From assembly GCF_001677475.2 (NCBI RefSeq), contig NZ_CP015229.1: a stretch of DNA of 64,000 bases. One strand, given 5' to 3'. Of this stretch, positions 5,843-27,412 are shown piece after piece. Each line of letters starts with the position of its first letter. Within the stretch, counting starts at the first letter, position 1. Origin of the DNA: Escherichia coli (lineage in GTDB: Bacteria; Pseudomonadota; Gammaproteobacteria; Enterobacterales; Enterobacteriaceae). The notes under the pieces are model-generated. The model was not told the DNA's origin. It was given only the letters and a program-made list of their open reading frames with translations, and did no database searches. Position numbers and translations under genes: made by a program.

Positions 5843-6241
5843 ATGCGGGTATTCAAAACAAAACTTATTCGCCTGCAACTTACAGCAGAGGAACTTGATG
5901 CGTTAACGGCGGATTTTATTTCCTATAAGCGTGACGGTGTTTTGCCAGATATATTTGGTCGCGATGCACTCTACGACGACTCGTTTACCTGGCCATTAAT
6001 CAAATTTGAGCGAGTTGCTCATATTCATCTGGCAAATGTGAATAATCCATTTCCGTCACAGTTGCGCCAATTCAGCAGAACGAATGACGAAGCGCATTTG
6101 GTATATTGTCAGGGTGCGTTTGATGAGCAAGCATGGTTGCTCATTGCCATTCTGAAACCTGAACCTCATAAACTGGCTCGAGATAACAACCAAATGCATA
6201 AAATTGGGAAAATGGCAGAAGCGTTTCGCATGCGTTTTTGA
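5843..6241 (+). CDS. yafO: Type II toxin YafO (ribosome-dependent mRNA interferase)
   Basis: 132 aa, 2 nt after the yafN stop; conserved dinB-yafN-yafO-yafP order. Confidence 0.88.
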   Translation: MRVFKTKLIRLQLTAEELDALTADFISYKRDGVLPDIFGRDALYDDSFTWPLIKFERVAHIHLANVNNPFPSQLRQFSRTNDEAHLVYCQGAFDEQAWLLIAILKPEPHKLARDNNQMHKIGKMAEAFRMRF

Positions 6242-6250
6242 ATTTATATT

Positions 6251-6703
6251 ATGAATAACATACAAATAAGAAACTATCAGCCTGGCGATTTTCAGCAACT
6301 ATGCGCTATTTTCCTTAGAGCGGTTACGATGACCGCCAGTCAGCATTATTCACCACAACAAATTGCCGCCTGGGCGCAGATTGACGAATCTCGCTGGAAG
6401 GATAAACTCGCGAAATCACAAGTGCGGGTTGCCATCATTAATGCACAACCGGTTGGTTTTATTTCCCGCATTGAACATTATATCGATATGTTATTTGTTG
6501 ACCCTGAATACACCCGCCGTGGGGTTGCCAGCGCTTTGTTAAAACCTTTGATTAAGTCTGAATCCGAACTTACAGTGGACGCCAGCATAACCGCAAAACC
6601 ATTTTTTGAACGTTATGGTTTTCAGACAGTTAAGCAGCAGCGCGTTGAATGCCGGGGAGCGAGGTTTACTAATTTTTATATGCGTTATAAACAGCAACAT
6701 TAA
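6251..6703 (+). CDS. yafP: GNAT-family N-acetyltransferase YafP
   Basis: 150 aa, GNAT-like motif region (RRGVASALL); last gene of the dinB operon. Confidence 0.88.
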   Translation: MNNIQIRNYQPGDFQQLCAIFLRAVTMTASQHYSPQQIAAWAQIDESRWKDKLAKSQVRVAIINAQPVGFISRIEHYIDMLFVDPEYTRRGVASALLKPLIKSESELTVDASITAKPFFERYGFQTVKQQRVECRGARFTNFYMRYKQQH

Positions 6704-6872
6704 ATCCAGCTTGCAATGAAAATAACGCCCGCCTAATATGTGCGCGTTTTGTTATTCCACAAACTGCAAGGAGGTAAATCATGACAAATCCTTTATCAAT
6801 GACTCTTTGCAGACCTTTCCAGGATTAATTCTTTTTTTTCTTGCCCTGGATCCGTCTGCCATTTCCTGATTT

Positions 6873-7008
6873 TTATATTTATATACTCTAAATAATTCGA
6901 GTTGTAGGAAGGCGACAAGCGAGTGAATCCCTAGGAGCTTACGAAAGTAAGTGACTGGGGTGAACGAACGCAGTCGTAGTACATGCAACTTGAAGTATGA
7001 CGAGTATA
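6873..7008. repeat. ERIC/IRU element (enterobacterial repetitive intergenic consensus), copy 1
   Basis: Contains GTGAATCCCTAGGAGCTTAC and AAGTAAGTGACTGGGGTGAACG, matching the ERIC primer sites; imperfect palindrome; second copy at 25753-25880. Confidence 0.85.
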
Positions 7009-7009
7009 A

Positions 7010-8161
7010 ATGGAATGGTACATGGGCAAATATATTCGTCCCTTATCCGATGCGGTATTTACCATCGCATCTGATGACCTGTGGATCGAGAGTTTAGCGA
7101 TCCAACAATTACACACCACGGCAAATTTACCCAACATGCATCGCGTAGTGGGGATGCCAGATTTACACCCCGGACGTGGCTACCCGATTGGCGCAGCGTT
7201 CTTCTCCGTAGGTCGTTTTTACCCGGCGCTGGTCGGCAATGATATCGGCTGCGGCATGGCGCTATGGCAAACAGATATTCTCGTGCGCAAGTACAACGCC
7301 GATAAGTTTGAAAAGCGATTATCAGCTTTGGATGACGTTGCTGAAGAAAGCTGGCTGGAGGAAAACCTGCCGTCAGCGTTTGCACTACATCCGTGGCGCA
7401 GCTCGCTTGGCTCCATCGGCGGTGGCAATCACTTCGCTGAACTGCAACAGATTGATCAAATTATCGACGCGGAACTGTTTGCACTGGCAGGTCTGGATGC
7501 GCAGCATCTGCAACTGCTGGTTCATAGCGGATCGCGTGGTCTGGGGCAGTCTGTTTTACAAAAACATATTTCCACATTCTCGCATCATGGTTTGCCGGAA
7601 GGCAGTGATGACGCGATGCGCTATATCGTGGAACATGACGATGCGCTGGCGTTTGCTCGCATTAATCGCCAGATGATCGCCCTGCGCATAATGCAACAGG
7701 TGAAGGCTACGGGAAGTCCGGTTCTGGATGTGGCGCATAACTTCATTACCGCGAGTAAAATTGGCGATCAACAAGGCTGGTTACACCGTAAAGGGGCTGC
7801 GCCAGATGACAGTGGCCTGGTGGTTATCCCCGGTTCACGCGGTGATTACTCATGGCTTGTACAGCCTGTCAGTAGCGAAGAAATATTGCATTCGCTGGCG
7901 CATGGGGCAGGACGTAAATGGGGGCGCACCGAGTGCAAAGGACGGCTGGCAGCGAAATACACGGCGACGCAACTTACGCGTACTGAACTTGGCAGCAGGG
8001 TAATTTGTCGCGATAAACAGCTCATCTTTGAAGAGGCGCCGCAGGCCTATAAATCGGCAGAAAGCGTGGTGCAATGTCTGGTGCAGGCCGGTTTAATTAT
8101 TCCTGTCGCGCGGCTGCGCCCGGTGCTGACACTCAAAAACAGTGGAGGGAAAAAAGGATGA
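7010..8161 (+). CDS. RtcB-family RNA ligase paralogue (RtcB2-like), full length
   Basis: 383 aa; GGGNHF motif and HNF motif region typical of RtcB; stop overlaps the prfH start (ATGA at 8158-8161). The K-12 counterpart (ykfJ) is a pseudogene. Confidence 0.8.
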
Positions 8162-8772
8162 TCTTGCTACAACTCTCCTCAGCCCAGGGACCGGAAGAAT
8201 GCTGCCTCGCAGTCAAAAAGGCGTTGGACAGGCTGATTAAAGAAGCATCCCAACAGCGTGTTGCGGTAACGGTGCTGGAGACAGAAACGGGCCGCTACTC
8301 TGATTCGCTGCGTTCAGCGCTGGTTTCTCTGGATGGCGACAACGCATGGGCATTAAGCGAAAGCTGGTGCGGCACTATTCAGTGGATTTGTCCGAGTCCG
8401 TATCGGCCTCATCATGGGCGCAAAAACTGGTTTCTGGGCATTGGGCGTTTTACCGCTGATGAGCAGGAACAATCGGATGCAATCCGTTATGAGACGCTGC
8501 GTTCGTCGGGGCCGGGCGGTCAACATGTCAATAAAACCGACTCGGCGGTACGCGCCACGCATCTGGCTACCGGAATTAGTGTGAAGGTTCAGTCAGAGCG
8601 CAGCCAGCATGCTAACAAACGGCTGGCGCGATTGCTGATCGCCTGGAAGCTGGAACAACAGCAACAGGAAAATAGCGCGGTGCTGAAATCGCAGCGGCGA
8701 ATGTTCCATCACCAGATTGAACGTGGCAACCCGCGACGGACATTTACAGGGATGGCTTTTATCGAAGGATAA
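8158..8772 (+). CDS. prfH: Peptide chain release factor homologue PrfH
   Basis: 204 aa from [15 protein letters not shown]; GGQ motif present ([17 protein letters not shown]); the longer ORF from 8074 overlaps rtcB and is taken as an extension artefact. Confidence 0.88.
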
Positions 8773-8784
8773 TGAAGGATGAAA

Positions 8785-8817
8785 CTGCCGGAAGGCGATT
8801 AAACGCCATCCGGCAGC
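8785..8817. terminator. Bidirectional hairpin between convergent prfH and pepD
   Basis: Inverted repeat CTGCCGGAAGGCG...CGCCATCCGGCAG between two convergent stops. Confidence 0.6.
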
Positions 8818-8828
8818 AAATCAAATAA

Positions 8829-10286
8829 TTACTTCGCCGGAATTTCTTTCAGCAGTTCAGTCAGCAGTGTCCAGTAATGACCTACGCTTTCGATGTGAAC
8901 TTGCTCATCCGGAGAGTGTGGACCGGTGATAGTTGGCCCGATAGACACCATGTCCATTTCCGGATACGGTTTTTTGAACAGACCACATTCCAGGCCCGCG
9001 TGGATAATCTGGATGTTCGGCGTCTTGTTGAACAGGCGCTGATAGGTTTCACGTACCAGATGCATCACCGGAGAATTAGCGTCCGGCTGCCAGCCAGGAT
9101 ATGCGCCTTTCGCTTCGGTTTTCGCGCCAGCCAATTTACCCAGCGAATCCAGCATGCTCACCACGTAGTCTTTACCGCTGTCGATCAGAGAACGGATCAG
9201 ACAGTGAATTTCTACGTTATTGTCAGTCATGGTCACCACACCGACGTTCAGGGAGGTTTCGACCACACCTTTTGCCACGTCGGAGTTGCGGATCACACCG
9301 TTCGGGGTGGCGTTCAGTAGACGAATAAAGGTATCGCGAGATTTCGCAATCAGGGCAGCTTTATCGTTCGCTACAGAGTCCAGCAACAAGGCCAGATTTT
9401 TCTCTTTCTCTGCCAGCTCGTTTTTCAGGATATCCTGATAGGTATTCACCAGAGATTTCAGGGCGTCGACTTTATCAGCTGCGACAGCAATGGTCGCAAA
9501 GGCTTCACGCGGGATGGCGTTACGCAGTGTGCCGCCGTTGAAATCAATAAGACGCAGGTCCAGTTCTTCTGCATGACCCGCCAGGAAGCGCACCAGCAGT
9601 TTGTTGGCATTACCCAGGCCAACGTGGATTTCACCGCCGGAGTGACCGCCTTTCAGACCTTTTAAGGTTAACTTGAAGGTTTCAAAACCAGCTGGAACCG
9701 CTTCACGATCTAAATGCAGGTTGGAGGTGAAGTCGATACCCCCCGCACAACCCATGTAGATTTCACCTTCTTCTTCGGAGTCGGTGTTAATCAAAATATC
9801 AGCCTGCAACCAGTTGCTCTGTAAGCCGAACGCACCGTCCATACCTGCTTCTTCGGTCATGGTCAGCAGCACTTCCAGCGGGCCGTGAACCACGTTTTCG
9901 TCAGCCAGAACCGCCAGTGCAGAGGCCATACCAATGCCGTTATCCGCACCCAGCGTGGTACCGCGCGCTTTAACCCATTCGCCATCAATATAAGGCTGGA
10001 TAGGATCTTTAGTGAAGTCATGCACGGTGTCGTTATTTTTCTGCGGCACCATATCGAGGTGGGCCTGCAAGACGACCGGTTTACGATTTTCCATACCTGC
10101 GGTAGCAGGTTTACGAATCAGGATATTACCTACCTGATCGCGTTCGACATGGAAACCTTTCTCTTTTGCCCAACCAACAATGTATTCAGCGAGTTGCTCT
10201 TCATGATAGGACGGGTGAGGAATAGAACAGATTTTGGCAAAAATATCCCACAGCGGCTGTGGAGATAATTGAGACAGTTCAGACAC
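8829..10286 (-). CDS. pepD: Cytosol non-specific dipeptidase (aminoacyl-histidine dipeptidase), M20 family
   Basis: 485 aa; N-terminus MSELSQLSPQPLWDIFAKICSIPHPS as recalled for E. coli PepD. Confidence 0.95.
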   Translation of the reverse strand: MSELSQLSPQPLWDIFAKICSIPHPSYHEEQLAEYIVGWAKEKGFHVERDQVGNILIRKPATAGMENRKPVVLQAHLDMVPQKNNDTVHDFTKDPIQPYIDGEWVKARGTTLGADNGIGMASALAVLADENVVHGPLEVLLTMTEEAGMDGAFGLQSNWLQADILINTDSEEEGEIYMGCAGGIDFTSNLHLDREAVPAGFETFKLTLKGLKGGHSGGEIHVGLGNANKLLVRFLAGHAEELDLRLIDFNGGTLRNAIPREAFATIAVAADKVDALKSLVNTYQDILKNELAEKEKNLALLLDSVANDKAALIAKSRDTFIRLLNATPNGVIRNSDVAKGVVETSLNVGVVTMTDNNVEIHCLIRSLIDSGKDYVVSMLDSLGKLAGAKTEAKGAYPGWQPDANSPVMHLVRETYQRLFNKTPNIQIIHAGLECGLFKKPYPEMDMVSIGPTITGPHSPDEQVHIESVGHYWTLLTELLKEIPAK

Positions 10287-16664: not shown

Positions 16665-16740
16665 GCCGATATAGCTCAGTTGGTAGAGCAGCGCATTCGT
16701 AATGCGAAGGTCGTAGGTTCGACTCCTATTATCGGCACCA
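16665..16740 (+). tRNA. thrW: tRNA-Thr (anticodon CGU)
   Basis: 76 nt GCCGATATAGCTCAGTTGGTAGAGCAGCGCATTCGTAATGCGAAGGTCGTAGGTTCGACTCCTATTATCGGCACCA; cloverleaf with CGT anticodon and encoded CCA end. Confidence 0.95.
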
Positions 16741-23538: not shown

Positions 23539-24438
23539 TTAAGCCAATTGCTGCCGCCATTCCTTGACGTGGTCAATCAGGGCGCGGAGCTTTGGTGCAA
23601 TATTGCGACGCTGTGGGAAATACAGATAGAAGCCCGGAAATTGTGGAAGAAAGTCATCAAGCAGCGATACAAGCTTACCGCTTTCAATATATGGCCTGAA
23701 CGTTTCCTGAGTGGCAATTGTTATTCCTCCGCCGGCAAGAGCCAGCCTCAACATCAGACGCAGATCATTCGTCGTAATCTGCGGTTCAATCGCAAGGTCG
23801 AAAGCTCTACCGTTTTCTTCAAATGGCCAGCGATAAGGAGCAACCTCCGGGGACTGACGCCAGCCGATACACTTATGATTCACAAGTTCACGCGGGTGAA
23901 CAGGTGTGCTGTTGGCTGCGAGATAGGAGGGAGAGGCAACGACCATTTCACGCTGCCTGGCGGTAAGGGGAACAGCAATCATGTCTTTTTCAATGACCTC
24001 TCCGAGCCTTACGCCAGCATCGTAACCTGCGGCAACGATATCGAATTCCTCATCCGTGACAACAATATCAAGCGTAACGGCTGGATTGGCAGCTGCAAAC
24101 GAAGCGATTAGCGGACCTGAAAGAAATTCTTCTGCTATCGACGTCACCGCGATTCTGAGATGTCCACGTGGTACATGGTCAGAAACCATCTCTTCGAACG
24201 CTGCCTCAATACCGGATAAAGGTAATGACAACGATTTATGCAGCCGTTCTCCCGCTTCCGTCAAATTAACTGAGCGCGTGGTCCGCATTACAAGCATTGT
24301 CCCGAATGCATCTTCAAGGCGTCTTATTCCCTGACTGACCGCTGAACGGGTAACGCCCAGTCGTGCGGCGGCTTTACTGAAATTACTCTCTTCTGCTACC
24401 GCGATAAAAATGGGTAAAAGATTAAGATCGATTTTCAT
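23539..24438 (-). CDS. LysR-family transcriptional regulator
   Basis: 299 aa; N-terminal HTH (FSKAAARLGVTRSAVSQGIRRLE) and LysR substrate-binding domain; divergent from an SDR gene. Confidence 0.85.
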   Translation of the reverse strand: MKIDLNLLPIFIAVAEESNFSKAAARLGVTRSAVSQGIRRLEDAFGTMLVMRTTRSVNLTEAGERLHKSLSLPLSGIEAAFEEMVSDHVPRGHLRIAVTSIAEEFLSGPLIASFAAANPAVTLDIVVTDEEFDIVAAGYDAGVRLGEVIEKDMIAVPLTARQREMVVASPSYLAANSTPVHPRELVNHKCIGWRQSPEVAPYRWPFEENGRAFDLAIEPQITTNDLRLMLRLALAGGGITIATQETFRPYIESGKLVSLLDDFLPQFPGFYLYFPQRRNIAPKLRALIDHVKEWRQQLA

Positions 24439-24536
24439 TGTTTAATGCCGCTAACCACTGAGTACATTGAAAGCAGGATACTGGAACCAATCATAAAGTT
24501 CTATTATCTCTCCGAACACATTTGAAGGAGAACGTA

Positions 24537-25259
24537 ATGGATAAGGTCATATTAATCACCGGCGCATCAAGTGGTATTGGGGAAGGTATTGCCAGAGAAC
24601 TGGGAACGACAGGTGCGAAGGTTTTACTGGGCGCACGCAGAGTTGAGCGTATCGAAGCCATTGCAACCGAAATCTGCCTCGCAGGAGGAATTGCTAAAGC
24701 GCGGGAGTTGGATGTCACAGACCGACAGTCCATGGCCGATTTCGTGCAAGCAGCGCTGGATAACTGGGGGCGAGTTGATGTTCTTATCAATAATGCGGGC
24801 GTTATGCCGCTTTCACCGCTTGCAGCAGGAAAACAGGATGAATGGGAGCTCACTATTGACGTGAATATCAAAGGTGTACTGTGGGGAATTGGCGCTGTAC
24901 TTCCGGTGATGGAAGCACAGGGTTCCGGTCAGATAATCAATCTTGGTTCTATTGGTGCCCTTTCTGTTGTGCCCACAGGCGCAGTCTATTGTGCATCAAA
25001 ATTTGCAGTACGGGCTATTTCTGATGGCTTACGGCAGGAAAGCTCGAAAATCCGTGTGACCTGCGTAAATCCTGGCGTTGTCGAAAGTGAACTGGCTTCA
25101 ACCATTACCCATGTGGAAACCATGAAGGCAATGGACGCCTACCGTTCTGTTGCACTTCAACCCGCGGATATTGCCCGTGCTGTAAGGCATATTATTGAAT
25201 CTCCCGAAAGCGTTGATACAACCGAAATTACCATCAGACCCACTGCATCTGCAAACTGA
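24537..25259 (+). CDS. Short-chain dehydrogenase/reductase (SDR) family oxidoreductase
   Basis: TGASSGIG Rossmann motif and the S...YxxxK catalytic pattern (YCASK); start taken at MDKVILITG. Confidence 0.85.
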   Translation: MDKVILITGASSGIGEGIARELGTTGAKVLLGARRVERIEAIATEICLAGGIAKARELDVTDRQSMADFVQAALDNWGRVDVLINNAGVMPLSPLAAGKQDEWELTIDVNIKGVLWGIGAVLPVMEAQGSGQIINLGSIGALSVVPTGAVYCASKFAVRAISDGLRQESSKIRVTCVNPGVVESELASTITHVETMKAMDAYRSVALQPADIARAVRHIIESPESVDTTEITIRPTASAN

Positions 25260-25470
25260 AGAATAACTTTTACATTCACGTTTTATTAAATATGTCAGAA
25301 GGAAAATTTATATCCACCTGTTTTGCATAGCAAGATGCATTATGTATTGCTCACCCCGAAGGAGATGAAGTTTTAATTACAGAAGGAGTATTTTCTCTTG
25401 GAGTAAATATGGCTCATGTTTAATGCCTATGTATATAAAACTCATCCTCTCAATTGTCAGGAGAATTAAC

Positions 25471-25701
25471 ATGAATACTATCTGTTCTTTAATTGTTGTG
25501 GTTACACTGTCTTTATTATCATTCAGTAGCGTCGCCAAAACGATTACTGCCGTCGGTTCAACCATCGACAGCACTGAAAAAGAAATTTCTTTACAGGCAG
25601 AAAAACAAGGAAAATCATATAAAATTCTGGGCGCATTTTTCAAGAACAGAGTTTATATTATAGCAAAGTTAACACCAGTCAGTAAAAATGATGCTTCATA
25701 A
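25471..25701 (+). CDS. Small secreted DUF1471 (YdgH/BhsA/McbA-like) protein
   Basis: About 76 aa with a signal peptide (MNTICSLIVVVTLSLLSFSSVA) and a mature part resembling the BhsA/YhcN family; boundaries uncertain. Confidence 0.5.
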   Translation: MNTICSLIVVVTLSLLSFSSVAKTITAVGSTIDSTEKEISLQAEKQGKSYKILGAFFKNRVYIIAKLTPVSKNDAS

Positions 25702-25752
25702 GGCTCATGATATAATTTTTAAGACATGATCAAGAAGCACGTTTATTTATTC

Positions 25753-25880
25753 ATATACTCTAAATAATTCAAGTTGCAGGAAGGCGACAAGTGAGTGAAT
25801 CCCCAGGAGCTTACAAAAGTAAGTGACTGGGGTGAATGAACGCAGTCGCAGCACATGCAACTTGAAGTATGACGAGTATA
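25753..25880. repeat. ERIC/IRU element, copy 2
   Basis: Over 90% identical by eye to the copy at 6873-7008 (GTGAATCCCCAGGAGCTTAC ... AAGTAAGTGACTGGGGTGAATG). Confidence 0.85.
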
Positions 25881-26031
25881 ATTATCATTATTATGGCCAT
25901 GGAATACCTGACAAATGACGCTACCCCAACCTTCTGTACCAGTCGTTCTGCTAATTCTACCGATGCTTCGGTCTGGAGTGGTAGAGTAATATTAGACACA
26001 GTTTTATTTTCTCTCTTTTTCGAGGGCTGTA

Positions 26032-26297
26032 TATGAACAGGAAGAATACATCCCTAAGCGGTTAATGCTGGCGTAATCAATAGACCAGCATTAATCACAG
26101 ATGATTATCAATCAGACAGAAATGGTTAAATCGTCGAATTCATAATTAATACTTTTTGTAACGCCGCTGAATAGCTTGAAAAGGATGTATATTTTAAATA
26201 TCAGTGAAGTGAACAGTTTATTGCCGTTATTAATAGAAATGGAGGAATAAATACGCGTATTCTACTATTGCAACAAAAACAACGATATTGATCATTT
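26032..26297. repeat. Intergenic repeat module, intact copy (two halves contiguous)
   Basis: First half matches 44674-44784 and second half matches 45478-45622 (for example TATTTTAAATATCAGTGAAGTGAACAGTTTATTGCCGTTATTAATAGAAATGGAG); contains an internal inverted repeat TTAATGCTGG...CCAGCATTAA. Confidence 0.7.
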
Positions 26298-26527
26298 TTC
26301 ATAATGAAGTAACCTGACAGATATAAAAATGTTGATTGAGGCTAAATGCCCGGATGAAGGTTGTCGAGGGAGCCAGGTTGTTTTTTCTTTTGGATGATCT
26401 CCATTGCTGGATAGTCCCCTTGTACAGATAAGTCTGCTCTTTCTCGCTCAAAGCAGACCCTGGAATTGAACGCAGAGTGACTACCTGACACAATATTGCA
26501 CCGTGAAGAGTCGGTCGTTGTTAACGT

Positions 26528-27412
26528 TCAGATTTTCAATGTATCAATGACCATCCGCAGAGCGGGGGAGACGTTGCGATGAGGGTAATAGAGAAACAAT
26601 CCCTCCATTCGCAGGCTGTAACGCTGCAACACTCTGATAAGCTTACCGTGTTCTAAATCATCCGCGACCAGTTCAACAGGAACATAGGCCAATCCGAGGC
26701 CCAGCCGGGCTGCTTCTGCTTCCATATAGCTGTCGGATAAGGCCCATTGCCCTTCAGGGCGATGAGTGATTTTTTTATCATCCTGATTGAGTTCCCACTG
26801 GTATACGCTGCCGTCGGCAAACTGATAGGCGATACAGGGATGCGCCTTTAAATCCGCCGGGGTTTGCGGAAAACCATAGCGACGAAAATGTTCCGGAGTC
26901 CCCACAATTGCCATCTCCATATCGGGCGTGATGCGTACCGCGACCATGCCCTGACCGACTTCAGGCCCCAGGCGGACACCTGCATCGAATCTTTCCTCGA
27001 TGATATCGACGAACCGGCTCTCATTTATCAGTTCAAGCCGGATATCAGGATATCGCTGTTTAAATACCGCCAGCTTTGGCAGCAGGCATTTATCAATCGC
27101 GTGCTGGCTGGCATTGATACGCACCGTGCCGGAGGGCGTCTCTCGATAGTGCGCCAGCGTGGCAAGCCCAAGATCTAACATTTCAAATCCAGATGCCGTC
27201 TTCTGGTAGAGCTGCTCGCCTGCTTGTGTCAGCGACAGTTTACGCGTGGTGCGCACTAGCAGCTGGACGCCCAGCCTTTCTTCAAGCTCGCGAACAGAAC
27301 GGCTGACTCCTGACTGAGCAAGACCCAGCCGCTGAGCTGCTGCGGTAAAGCTGCCTTCCCGCACCACCTGCATAAACAGGTACAGCTCGTTGTAGTTCTC
27401 CCTTTTCGCCAT
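26528..27412 (-). CDS. LysR-family transcriptional regulator (position of K-12 yagP)
   Basis: 294 aa, HTH (FTAAAQRLGLAQSGVSRSVRELE); divergent from a hydrolase/MFS gene pair. Confidence 0.85.
   Translation of the reverse strand: MAKRENYNELYLFMQVVREGSFTAAAQRLGLAQSGVSRSVRELEERLGVQLLVRTTRKLSLTQAGEQLYQKTASGFEMLDLGLATLAHYRETPSGTVRINASQHAIDKCLLPKLAVFKQRYPDIRLELINESRFVDIIEERFDAGVRLGPEVGQGMVAVRITPDMEMAIVGTPEHFRRYGFPQTPADLKAHPCIAYQFADGSVYQWELNQDDKKITHRPEGQWALSDSYMEAEAARLGLGLAYVPVELVADDLEHGKLIRVLQRYSLRMEGLFLYYPHRNVSPALRMVIDTLKI

Follow-up and report, generated by a model that had tools for sequence, protein, structure and literature searches.

A full-length ERIC element within the predicted leader of the Escherichia coli rtcB2-prfH operon, likely carried as a tolerated passenger

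Between yafP and the rtcB2-prfH ribosome-repair operon, the window (the whole stretch of 64,000 nucleotides of Escherichia coli DNA analysed here) contains a full-length ERIC/IRU miniature inverted-repeat element, which we call copy A (Table 1). In our judgement, copy A is likely to be a tolerated, near-neutral passenger in the rtcB2-prfH leader, which was inserted at a TA, folds on itself and has little effect on expression. We favor this reading because strains with an empty site carry an intact, functional operon and because the predicted energetic effect of the element is small. The ERIC copy matters little by itself: it belongs to an already known kind of element, described since 1990-91, and K-12 has it at the same site. 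The coexistence of full, short and empty alleles at this site offers a marker and a natural experiment on any effect that a MITE hairpin may have when it lies 3 nt away from a ribosome-binding site. The conserved leader around it, with a putative promoter, an upstream open reading frame (uORF) and four pairing segments, is the more interesting by-product and might provide a testable answer to the question of how a repair system for colicin E3 and ribosome damage is induced.

Table 1. Features of the yafP-rtcB2-prfH region and the second ERIC copy, in window positions
Feature	Position	Strand	Remarks
yafP	6251-6703	+	PRK09831
Promoter-like pair for the rtcB2-prfH leader	6711-6739	+	-35 TTGCAA 6711-6716, 17-nt spacer, -10 TAATAT 6734-6739
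Leader segment 1 (CUGCAAGGAG)	6764-6773	+	predicted to pair with segment 2
Leader uORF	6781-6828	+	15 codons, MTNPLSMTLCRPFQD-stop; Shine-Dalgarno AAGGAGG 6768-6774; invariant in Escherichia
Leader segment 2 (CUCUUUGCAGAC)	6803-6814	+	predicted to pair with segment 1 or 3
Leader segment 3 (CGUCUGCCAUUUCC), anti-RBS	6853-6866	+	predicted to pair with segment 2 or 4
ERIC/IRU element copy A, full length	6882-7008	+ (sense strand same as rtcB)	127 bp
Left terminal inverted-repeat arm	6882-6904	+	TA 6882-6883 is one copy of the duplicated target
Segment missing from short ERIC alleles	6900-6971	+	72 bp; from alignments of 13C1065T, NS-NP030 and E1V33
Conserved central core	6923-6966	+	ERIC1R reverse complement, then ERIC2
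Right terminal inverted-repeat arm	6986-7008	+	TA 7007-7008 is the second target copy
Leader segment 4 (GGAAUGGUACAUG)	7012-7024	+	rtcB Shine-Dalgarno-like sequence and start codon
rtcB2	7022-8161	+	PrfH-coupled RtcB-family RNA ligase, intact, 379 aa; PRK09588, TIGR03073 release_rtcB
prfH	8158-8772	+	peptide chain release factor H, intact, 204 aa; TIGR03072, 325 bits
ERIC copy B	25754-25880	+	127 bp, same orientation as copy A

Identity and structure of the element

Copy A reads TATACTCTAAATAATTCGAGTTG ... CAACTTGAAGTATGACGAGTATA, with the ends TATACTC...GAGTATA, and its terminal arms of 23 nt each are 78% complementary. Its core matches GTGAATCCCCAGGAGCTTAC, the reverse complement of ERIC1R, at 6923-6942 and AAGTAAGTGACTGGGGTGAGCG, ERIC2, at 6945-6966, each with one mismatch. 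Both primer sequences were confirmed against the literature, where they occur in 233 papers, and the number of such matches expected by chance is zero (none in 100 shuffles). For a full-length comparison we built a consensus from six E. coli copies (A, B and those at ybhJ-ybhI, at dxs-yajO, upstream of ler and at pgk-fbaA), which is not the published consensus. Copy A differs from it at 6 of 127 positions, a match of about 95% over the full length, and aligns colinearly, without gaps and end to end with four unrelated E. coli copies over 127 bp. The RNA of the + strand folds at -53.3 kcal/mol compared with -25.3 +/- 3.2 kcal/mol in shuffles (z = -8.8), and that of the - strand at -31.4 kcal/mol (z = -3.7). 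The advantage of this strand, about 10 kcal/mol, is found in all six aligned copies. The family is dispersed in unrelated contexts, with a median of 4-6 places per E. coli genome detectable by megablast. Copy A thus shows every sequence-level hallmark of ERIC/IRU, namely the length, the core, the terminal inverted repeats with their hairpin, the TA ends and duplication, and the dispersed copies. It is a full-length ERIC/IRU miniature inverted-repeat element.

The first-pass annotation had recognized a typical ERIC imperfect palindrome between yafP and the rtcB-like gene, and the consensus, the primer core and the hairpin bear it out; the poor consensus match that would speak against ERIC was not what the alignment returned. 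Its bounds of 6873-7008 gave the right place and the wrong start, taking in 9 nt of A/T-rich flank before the true start at 6882. A chance palindrome, or a repeat of another family such as REP/BIME, could draw only on the fact that palindromic repeats are common between the genes of E. coli. Set against the consensus match over the full length, a primer core without chance matches and the dispersal of the family across each genome, it has practically no chance of being the correct assignment.

In length, ends, core, hairpin, intergenic setting and short forms, copy A is the same as the ERIC/IRU/RU-1 elements known from Enterobacteriaceae (Sharples & Lloyd 1990; Hulton et al. 1991; PMC2229807 for a review), and in none of these respects does it differ. 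What is peculiar is its position inside a structured regulatory leader and its three-allele polymorphism. The stem of copy A has three lineage-specific substitutions, each of them a C-to-U change by which G-U pairing is retained in the sense RNA (-52.5 versus -30.6 kcal/mol), which hints at a possible constraint at the RNA level, three events not being significant.

An Rfam scan of positions 6000-9000 (E <= 1) returned no ERIC family and nothing matching the leader, apart from one spurious snoRNA match. Copy A aligned to RF02818 (V_AS5, a Vibrio antisense RNA) over positions 1-129 of 129 with 42.6 bits (E = 3e-7), and weakly, at chance level, to RF02766 (Ysr49, a Yersinia sRNA; E = 0.86). Membership of either family was rejected because the scores are far below the gathering thresholds of 96 and 95 bits. 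The V_AS5 model itself appears to have been built on an ERIC-like repeat.

Insertion sites and their allelic states

Escherichia whittamii (L009) has an empty site, GATTTTTTATATTTATAAATGG, compared with ...ATTTA-TA[CTC..GAG]TA-AATGG at the filled site. The empty site (GATTTTTTATATTTA-TA-AATGG; ...TATATTTA-TA-AATGG...) is exactly what remains of the filled site when the element and one TA are taken away. This comparison shows that copy A was inserted at a TA dinucleotide, which was duplicated. A 64-bp short ERIC is found at the homologous TA in Klebsiella spallanzanii, 1 nt upstream of ATGGAWTGG, and a metagenomic Klebsiella sequence (L025) represents the precise empty allele of that site, in agreement with TA duplication.

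Among complete E. coli genomes, the rtcB locus is present in 5425 of 5426, and 1650 of the 5426 (30%) have the full ERIC at it. Forty evenly spaced rows of the ranking comprised 12 full, 17 short and 10 empty alleles, from which we estimate that roughly 44% of E. coli have the short form and roughly 25% an empty site. The full allele was seen in the window, PEC408, K-12, O157:H7 and Escherichia sp. MOD1-EC7003, the short allele in 13C1065T, NS-NP030 and Escherichia sp. E1V33, and the empty allele in DG351-2, the GTDB E. coli representative and E. whittamii. The short allele is 55 bp long; 72 bp of the interior are missing from it, a loss bounded by two imperfect direct repeats, AGTTGCAG and AGTCGCAG (AGTTGYAG / AGTCGYAG).

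Full or short, an ERIC is kept at this site by about 75% of E. coli genomes, and two cryptic Escherichia lineages have one there as well. Together with the copy in K. spallanzanii, the retention in about three quarters of E. coli could mean that the element is more than a passenger. A scan of metagenomes with a Klebsiella-type leader motif gave 12 matches, two of which were unrelated and left out, and none of the 10 true Klebsiella- or Citrobacter-type leaders contained an ERIC; nor did the leaders of all other genera sampled. We read the K. spallanzanii copy as pointing to a site that tolerates or attracts ERICs, not to a component that the leader requires.

The window has a second ERIC, copy B, and no third (blastn, 7-nt word). 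Copy B is 93.7% identical to copy A and differs from the six-copy consensus at 4 of 127 positions. E. coli Combat11I9 and O157:H7 7636 lack it and have the same flanks with a net difference of 125 bp, in agreement with TA duplication; it is an insertion specific to the lineage of the window. The second, similar copy announced at 25753-25880 is thus genuine, at 25754-25880. It lies 9 kb from thrW (16665-16740), and its placement at the island edge is approximately right, the common E. coli backbone resuming about 60-190 bp away.

The rtcB2-prfH leader and the position of copy A

The gene order dinB-yafN-yafO-yafP-[ERIC]-rtcB-prfH-pepD agrees with that of annotated E. coli genomes, the best complete matches among which are 96.8-98.1% identical in the tested regions. 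Copy A begins 178 nt past the yafP stop codon. RtcB2 matches PRK09588 with 629 bits (residues 1-378 on profile positions 1-378 of 379) and is 92-94% identical to Escherichia representatives; prfH overlaps the rtcB2 stop codon by 4 nt. The longest rtcB ORF opens at ATG 7010, 1 nt after copy A, and the element had been reported to end 2 bp before the rtcB start. However, E. coli NS-NP030 has ACG in place of this ATG, and Citrobacter lacks it. The second ATG, at 7022, does not vary; RefSeq starts the orthologous rtcB there, and residue 1 of the protein translated from it aligns to profile position 1. Judging from these comparisons, the conserved rtcB start is ATG 7022 and not 7010. Copy A ends 13 nt before this codon and 3 nt before the Shine-Dalgarno-like GGAATGG, which is invariant within Escherichia.

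Upstream of the element, 125 nt from about 6750 to 6870 show no variation among E. coli, E. whittamii and two cryptic Escherichia lineages, although the flanking genes differ by 3-8%. A sigma-70 scan from yafP to rtcB found no promoter above threshold; TTGCAA-N17-TAATAT scores 8/12 and was accepted as promoter-like on conservation alone. We compared this leader with rtcB2-prfH loci of Klebsiella, Citrobacter, Salmonella, Kosakonia, Cronobacter, Limnobaculum, Leminorella, Proteus, Providencia and Pseudomonas (two). In 11 of 15 lineages, the promoter-like pair with the best score is the one 22-44 nt ahead of the uORF Shine-Dalgarno, and nine of these pairs read TTGCnn-N17-TAnnAT, from Escherichia to Pseudomonas. 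The uORF is kept in 13 other lineages as 13-16 codons with a ..LC(R/G).. motif and a strong Shine-Dalgarno; the Pseudomonas peptide is MQLLTTLCRSRLA. The 5' UTR location proposed for the element in the first-pass annotation is well founded: copy A lies almost certainly in the 5' UTR of rtcB-prfH, as far as conserved sequence can tell, because the conserved promoter-like pair is upstream of it and the start codon follows it after just 13 nt. It is presumably transcribed from that promoter-like site. We also considered a promoter within the ERIC or at its end (junction TATAAAT, 7005-7011) and rejected it, as there is no acceptable -35 (2-3/6) and the scan is silent.

In an alignment of 14 lineages, helix 1:2 has 95% of its cells paired and no covariation. 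Helix 2:3 has 96% (96.4%) paired, with A-U to G-C compensation in five lineages, and helix 3:4 has 80% paired, both partners having changed in three of its pairs. Single helices with slid partners gave 20-47%. The off-state, composed of helices 1:2 and 3:4 and an inner hairpin, has 87% of cells paired compared with 28-43% when the partners are slid. No intrinsic terminator was called between yafP and rtcB. The inner hairpin with the U-rich tract at 6809-6880 was considered as a terminator, either for the dinB operon or within an attenuator, and discarded, the U-tract beginning at least 8 nt past the stem and the scanner remaining silent; more probably, it represents a single-stranded, A/U-rich stretch ahead of the Shine-Dalgarno. 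A second anti-Shine-Dalgarno, UUAUUCCA (6753-6760), which paired with the RBS in the masked model, was dropped since it is not conserved outside Escherichia.

Copy A sits in the A/T-rich loop between segment 3, the anti-RBS, and segment 4, the RBS. We judged its effect on folding from minimum-free-energy (MFE) structures, RNAalifold and the energies required to open the RBS (7012-7024). In the MFE folds of the full, short and empty alleles, helices 1:2 and 3:4 are kept and the ERIC forms a self-contained side hairpin. The helices would survive the insertion because the inverted repeat folds on itself within the hairpin loop. In the free leader, opening the RBS was modelled to cost 10.4 kcal/mol for the empty, 8.3 for the short and 8.3 for the full allele. 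With a ribosome-sized mask on the uORF start, the values were 6.4, 5.0 and 6.0 kcal/mol, respectively, and with the mask on the uORF stop 12.9, 10.8 and 10.8 kcal/mol. The ERIC is thus predicted to weaken the sequestration of the RBS by only about 2 kcal/mol, to the same extent in the full and short forms.

Among known systems, the host leader, though not the ERIC, has its closest relative in the PA5471.1 leader of Pseudomonas aeruginosa, which senses ribosome stalling and controls armZ(PA5471)-prfH(PA5470) (Morita et al. 2009, as related in PMC3516279, PMC12057347 and PMC13041342). Both have a short leader ORF ahead of an RtcB-family gene and prfH, and four segments with alternative pairing. 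The Pseudomonas rtcB-prfH loci share with the Escherichia leader the uORF motif (..TLCRSRLA-stop), the GCAGG/CCUGC pairing of segments 2 and 3, and the anti-RBS and RBS segments. In the P. aeruginosa leader, which lies about 250 bp upstream, the 3:4 hairpin is described as a transcription terminator. In contrast, segment 4 of the Escherichia leader is the rtcB Shine-Dalgarno with the AUG, followed by AAAUAUAUUCG without a U-tract. The host leader therefore has the leader ORF and the mutually exclusive 1:2, 2:3 and 3:4 helices of PA5471.1 but not its 3:4 intrinsic terminator. It also resembles erm-type leaders (ermC, ermB), which have a leader ORF and 1:2, 2:3 and 3:4 helices with 3:4 hiding the Shine-Dalgarno and the start codon, so that both would become accessible once a ribosome stalled near the beginning of the leader; there is, however, no sequence relationship, and the mechanism in the host leader is a prediction. 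By analogy, we infer that the leader might be a ribosome-stalling attenuator, and the 3:4 helix without a U-tract probably points to translational attenuation in Escherichia. PMC3516279 reports that E. coli (K-12) ykfJ is inducible by 4-azaleucine. In the literature searched, whose coverage was limited and is no proof of novelty, we found no description of the enterobacterial leader or of an ERIC within it, and the E. coli RtcB2-PrfH literature examined does not mention a promoter, a leader or an ERIC.

A more far-reaching proposal, possible yet doubtful in our view, is that rtcB2-prfH of Enterobacterales is governed by an undescribed uORF-dependent translational attenuator homologous to PA5471.1, by which stalled or damaged ribosomes would induce their own repair. 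ERICs would have landed repeatedly in its permissive loop, at the same TA in Escherichia and K. spallanzanii, and the series of full, short and empty alleles would measurably shift its set-point.

Passenger, regulator, terminator or cause of decay

In the passenger reading, an ERIC MITE entered the presumably transcribed leader of the rtcB2-prfH operon at a TA and duplicated it. The target was the A/T-rich stretch, predicted to be single-stranded, between the anti-RBS and the RBS with the start codon, a loop that offers the TA targets used by ERIC. Transcription would run in the orientation with the stronger hairpin, and the ERIC RNA would pair with itself. Such self-folding might keep segments 3 and 4 adjacent and thereby preserve the regulatory helices of the leader. 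The element would be optional, as full, 72-bp-deleted and empty alleles at one E. coli site suggest, and copy A is presumably near-neutral.

The ERIC could instead be a working post-transcriptional regulator of rtcB2-prfH, acting on mRNA stability, for instance as a substrate of RNase III or RNase E or by stabilising the 5' end once processed, on translation initiation, or on the set-point or kinetics of the leader switch. Its place in the 5' UTR, 3 nt from GGAAUGG and 13 nt from the AUG, the better folding of its sense orientation, the weaker modelled sequestration of the RBS by about 2 kcal/mol and the short ERIC at the same TA in K. spallanzanii are all in keeping with such a role. When a ribosome covers segment 1, the modelled probability of helix 2:3 is moreover higher with the ERIC, 0.93 versus 0.6. 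There is also a precedent in Yersinia, where ERICs reportedly alter the stability of flanking co-transcribed mRNA in an orientation-dependent manner (De Gregorio 2005, as summarised in PMC2229807). As in Yersinia, copy A lies in an mRNA beside a coding region, with an orientation that matters for RNA folding. However, the precedent is not simply transferable because it concerns elements near the upstream gene's stop codon, where ribosomes unmask an RNase E site, whereas copy A is far past the yafP stop and just upstream of a start codon. All strains with an empty site, about 25%, have an intact operon, and in one of them, ATCC 25922, whose site is empty, RtcB2-PrfH protects against colicin E3 (PMC9223846). 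The coexistence of three allelic states suggests weak selection, the energy difference is small and identical in the full and short forms, and 10 of 10 metagenomic Klebsiella- or Citrobacter-type leaders and all other sampled genera lack the element. We therefore regard a regulatory role as unlikely. The suggestion of the first-pass annotation that the element might affect mRNA stability or translation found no positive support, given the empty sites with intact operons and the modest change in the model.

Far less probable is a role of the hairpin as a terminator or insulator against read-through from the LexA-controlled dinB-yafNOP into rtcB-prfH, even though its great stability (-53 kcal/mol) and its place between two transcription units that run in the same direction might invite the idea. 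The hairpin is followed by AAAUGGAAUGG, with no U-tract, and the scan finds no terminator. Being downstream of the promoter-like site and the uORF of rtcB, a terminator here would block the operon's own transcripts, and about a quarter of strains do without the element. The missing U-tract and the position downstream of the leader's promoter-like site make this role very improbable.

Finally, the ERIC might have lowered rtcB2-prfH expression, relaxed selection and so favored the 1-kb deletion that creates ykfJ and a prfH pseudogene (PMC1586002). We compared ERIC alleles with deletion status in evenly spaced rows of 5447 records, 39 of which were classified. Among these sampled rows, the operon was intact in 1 and deleted in 11 with the full ERIC, intact in 9 and deleted in 8 with the short ERIC, and intact in 10 and deleted in none with the empty site. 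Thus each of the 19 deletion alleles has an ERIC, full or short, and all 10 empty-site alleles are intact, as decay led by the ERIC would predict. Nevertheless, linkage on one haplotype gives the same pattern, nine of the 39 rows have an intact operon next to a short ERIC, and in the window an intact operon stands next to the full element. We consider decay led by the ERIC improbable, and the presence of an ERIC in every deletion allele may reflect linkage only. Strains with a decayed ykfJ, in which the retention of the element had been proposed as a check, do keep it, in full in K-12 and O157:H7 and as the short form in 13C1065T. The window belongs to a rare class, with the full ERIC and an intact operon.

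The rtcB2-prfH leader and the ERIC within it

Apart from the full-length ERIC inserted in it (copy A), the leader of rtcB2-prfH is strongly conserved (see table). It contains a promoter-like pair, TTGCAA-N17-TAATAT, and a 15-codon uORF (MTNPLSMTLCRPFQD) with a strong Shine-Dalgarno sequence. Four leader segments are predicted to allow the pairings 1:2, 2:3 or 3:4, and helix 3:4, which holds copy A in its loop, is predicted to mask the rtcB Shine-Dalgarno sequence and AUG. The leader is invariant in Escherichia and still recognisable in 13 further lineages, including Pseudomonas, where its counterpart is the PA5471.1 leader. It corresponds to no Rfam family and is not mentioned in the literature on E. 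coli RtcB2-PrfH that we found.

Coordinates of the leader and of the ERIC elements and insertions compared
Feature	Location	Organism	Remark
rtcB2-prfH leader	window 6711-7024, minus 6882-7008	E. coli	strongly conserved
Copy A, ERIC, 127 bp	window 6882-7008 (+)	E. coli	between yafP and rtcB2-prfH
Copy B, ERIC	window 25754-25880 (+)	E. coli	
Short ERIC-like element, 64 bp	L015 2924-2987	Klebsiella spallanzanii	
Diverged ERIC	L034 476-602	Salmonella enterica	opposite orientation; ~65% identity to copy A
Insertion, ~175 nt	L036 ~571-745	Intestinirhabdus alba	in the loop of the leader's inner hairpin

Copy A itself is asymmetric between its strands. The three substitutions found in the stem of copy A alone (window 6897, 6932 and 6977) are all C-to-T changes, which retain G-U pairs on the sense RNA and create A-C mismatches on the opposite strand. 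The folding energies consequently differ to an unusually large extent, -52.5 kcal/mol for the sense strand versus -30.6 kcal/mol for the other. Three C-to-T events are too few for significance. Among the Rfam families, the Vibrio antisense RNA V_AS5 (RF02818) matched window 6881-7004 over its whole length below the threshold (42.6 bits, E = 3e-7), and the match of the Yersinia sRNA Ysr49 (RF02766) to the same interval was at chance level (E = 0.86). At least the V_AS5 family looks to have been built on an ERIC-type repeat.

ERIC alleles, operon state and lineage in E. coli

We tallied ERIC alleles and operon states in evenly spaced row samples of E. coli genomes over the region homologous to window 6500-7400. 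The known 1-kb rtcB-prfH deletion occurred with a full ERIC or a short one (72 internal bp deleted) in 19/19 rows, and the operon was intact in all 10 rows with an empty site. The state of the window, a full ERIC with an intact operon, was rare (1/39 rows). In E. coli NS-NP030 (L002 1-704), the left end of the short ERIC is divergent (TTGTTACTCTC); yafP there directly follows dinB with overlapping ends, and the yafN-yafO toxin-antitoxin pair is absent.

When window regions 6500-7400, 6790-7100 and 24300-27300 were compared with 5426 complete E. coli genomes, the best identities were no higher than 96.8-98.1%, and the RtcB2 of the window is just 92-94% identical to Escherichia representatives. 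The source of the window seems to be either an Escherichia lineage outside these complete genomes or a recombinant at this locus.

Copy B lies in a LysR / SDR / hypothetical gene / ykgR context. Its absence from the best-matching complete E. coli genomes, in which the surrounding context otherwise matches, together with the just ~95% identity of its closest E. coli relatives, points to a lineage-specific but not very recent insertion.

Insertions at rtcB-prfH loci of other genera

The K. spallanzanii element has ERIC-type terminal arms around a different interior, and shares with the Escherichia ERIC the insertion TA located 1 nt upstream of ATGGAWTGG; a metagenomic Klebsiella locus provides its precise empty counterpart. 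The Salmonella ERIC has dinB on one side and the promoter of the rtcB leader on the other; yafNOP is absent there, and the 3:4 loop of that leader is without an ERIC. In Intestinirhabdus alba, the gene downstream of rtcB is called at just 144 aa, and the locus may be decaying.
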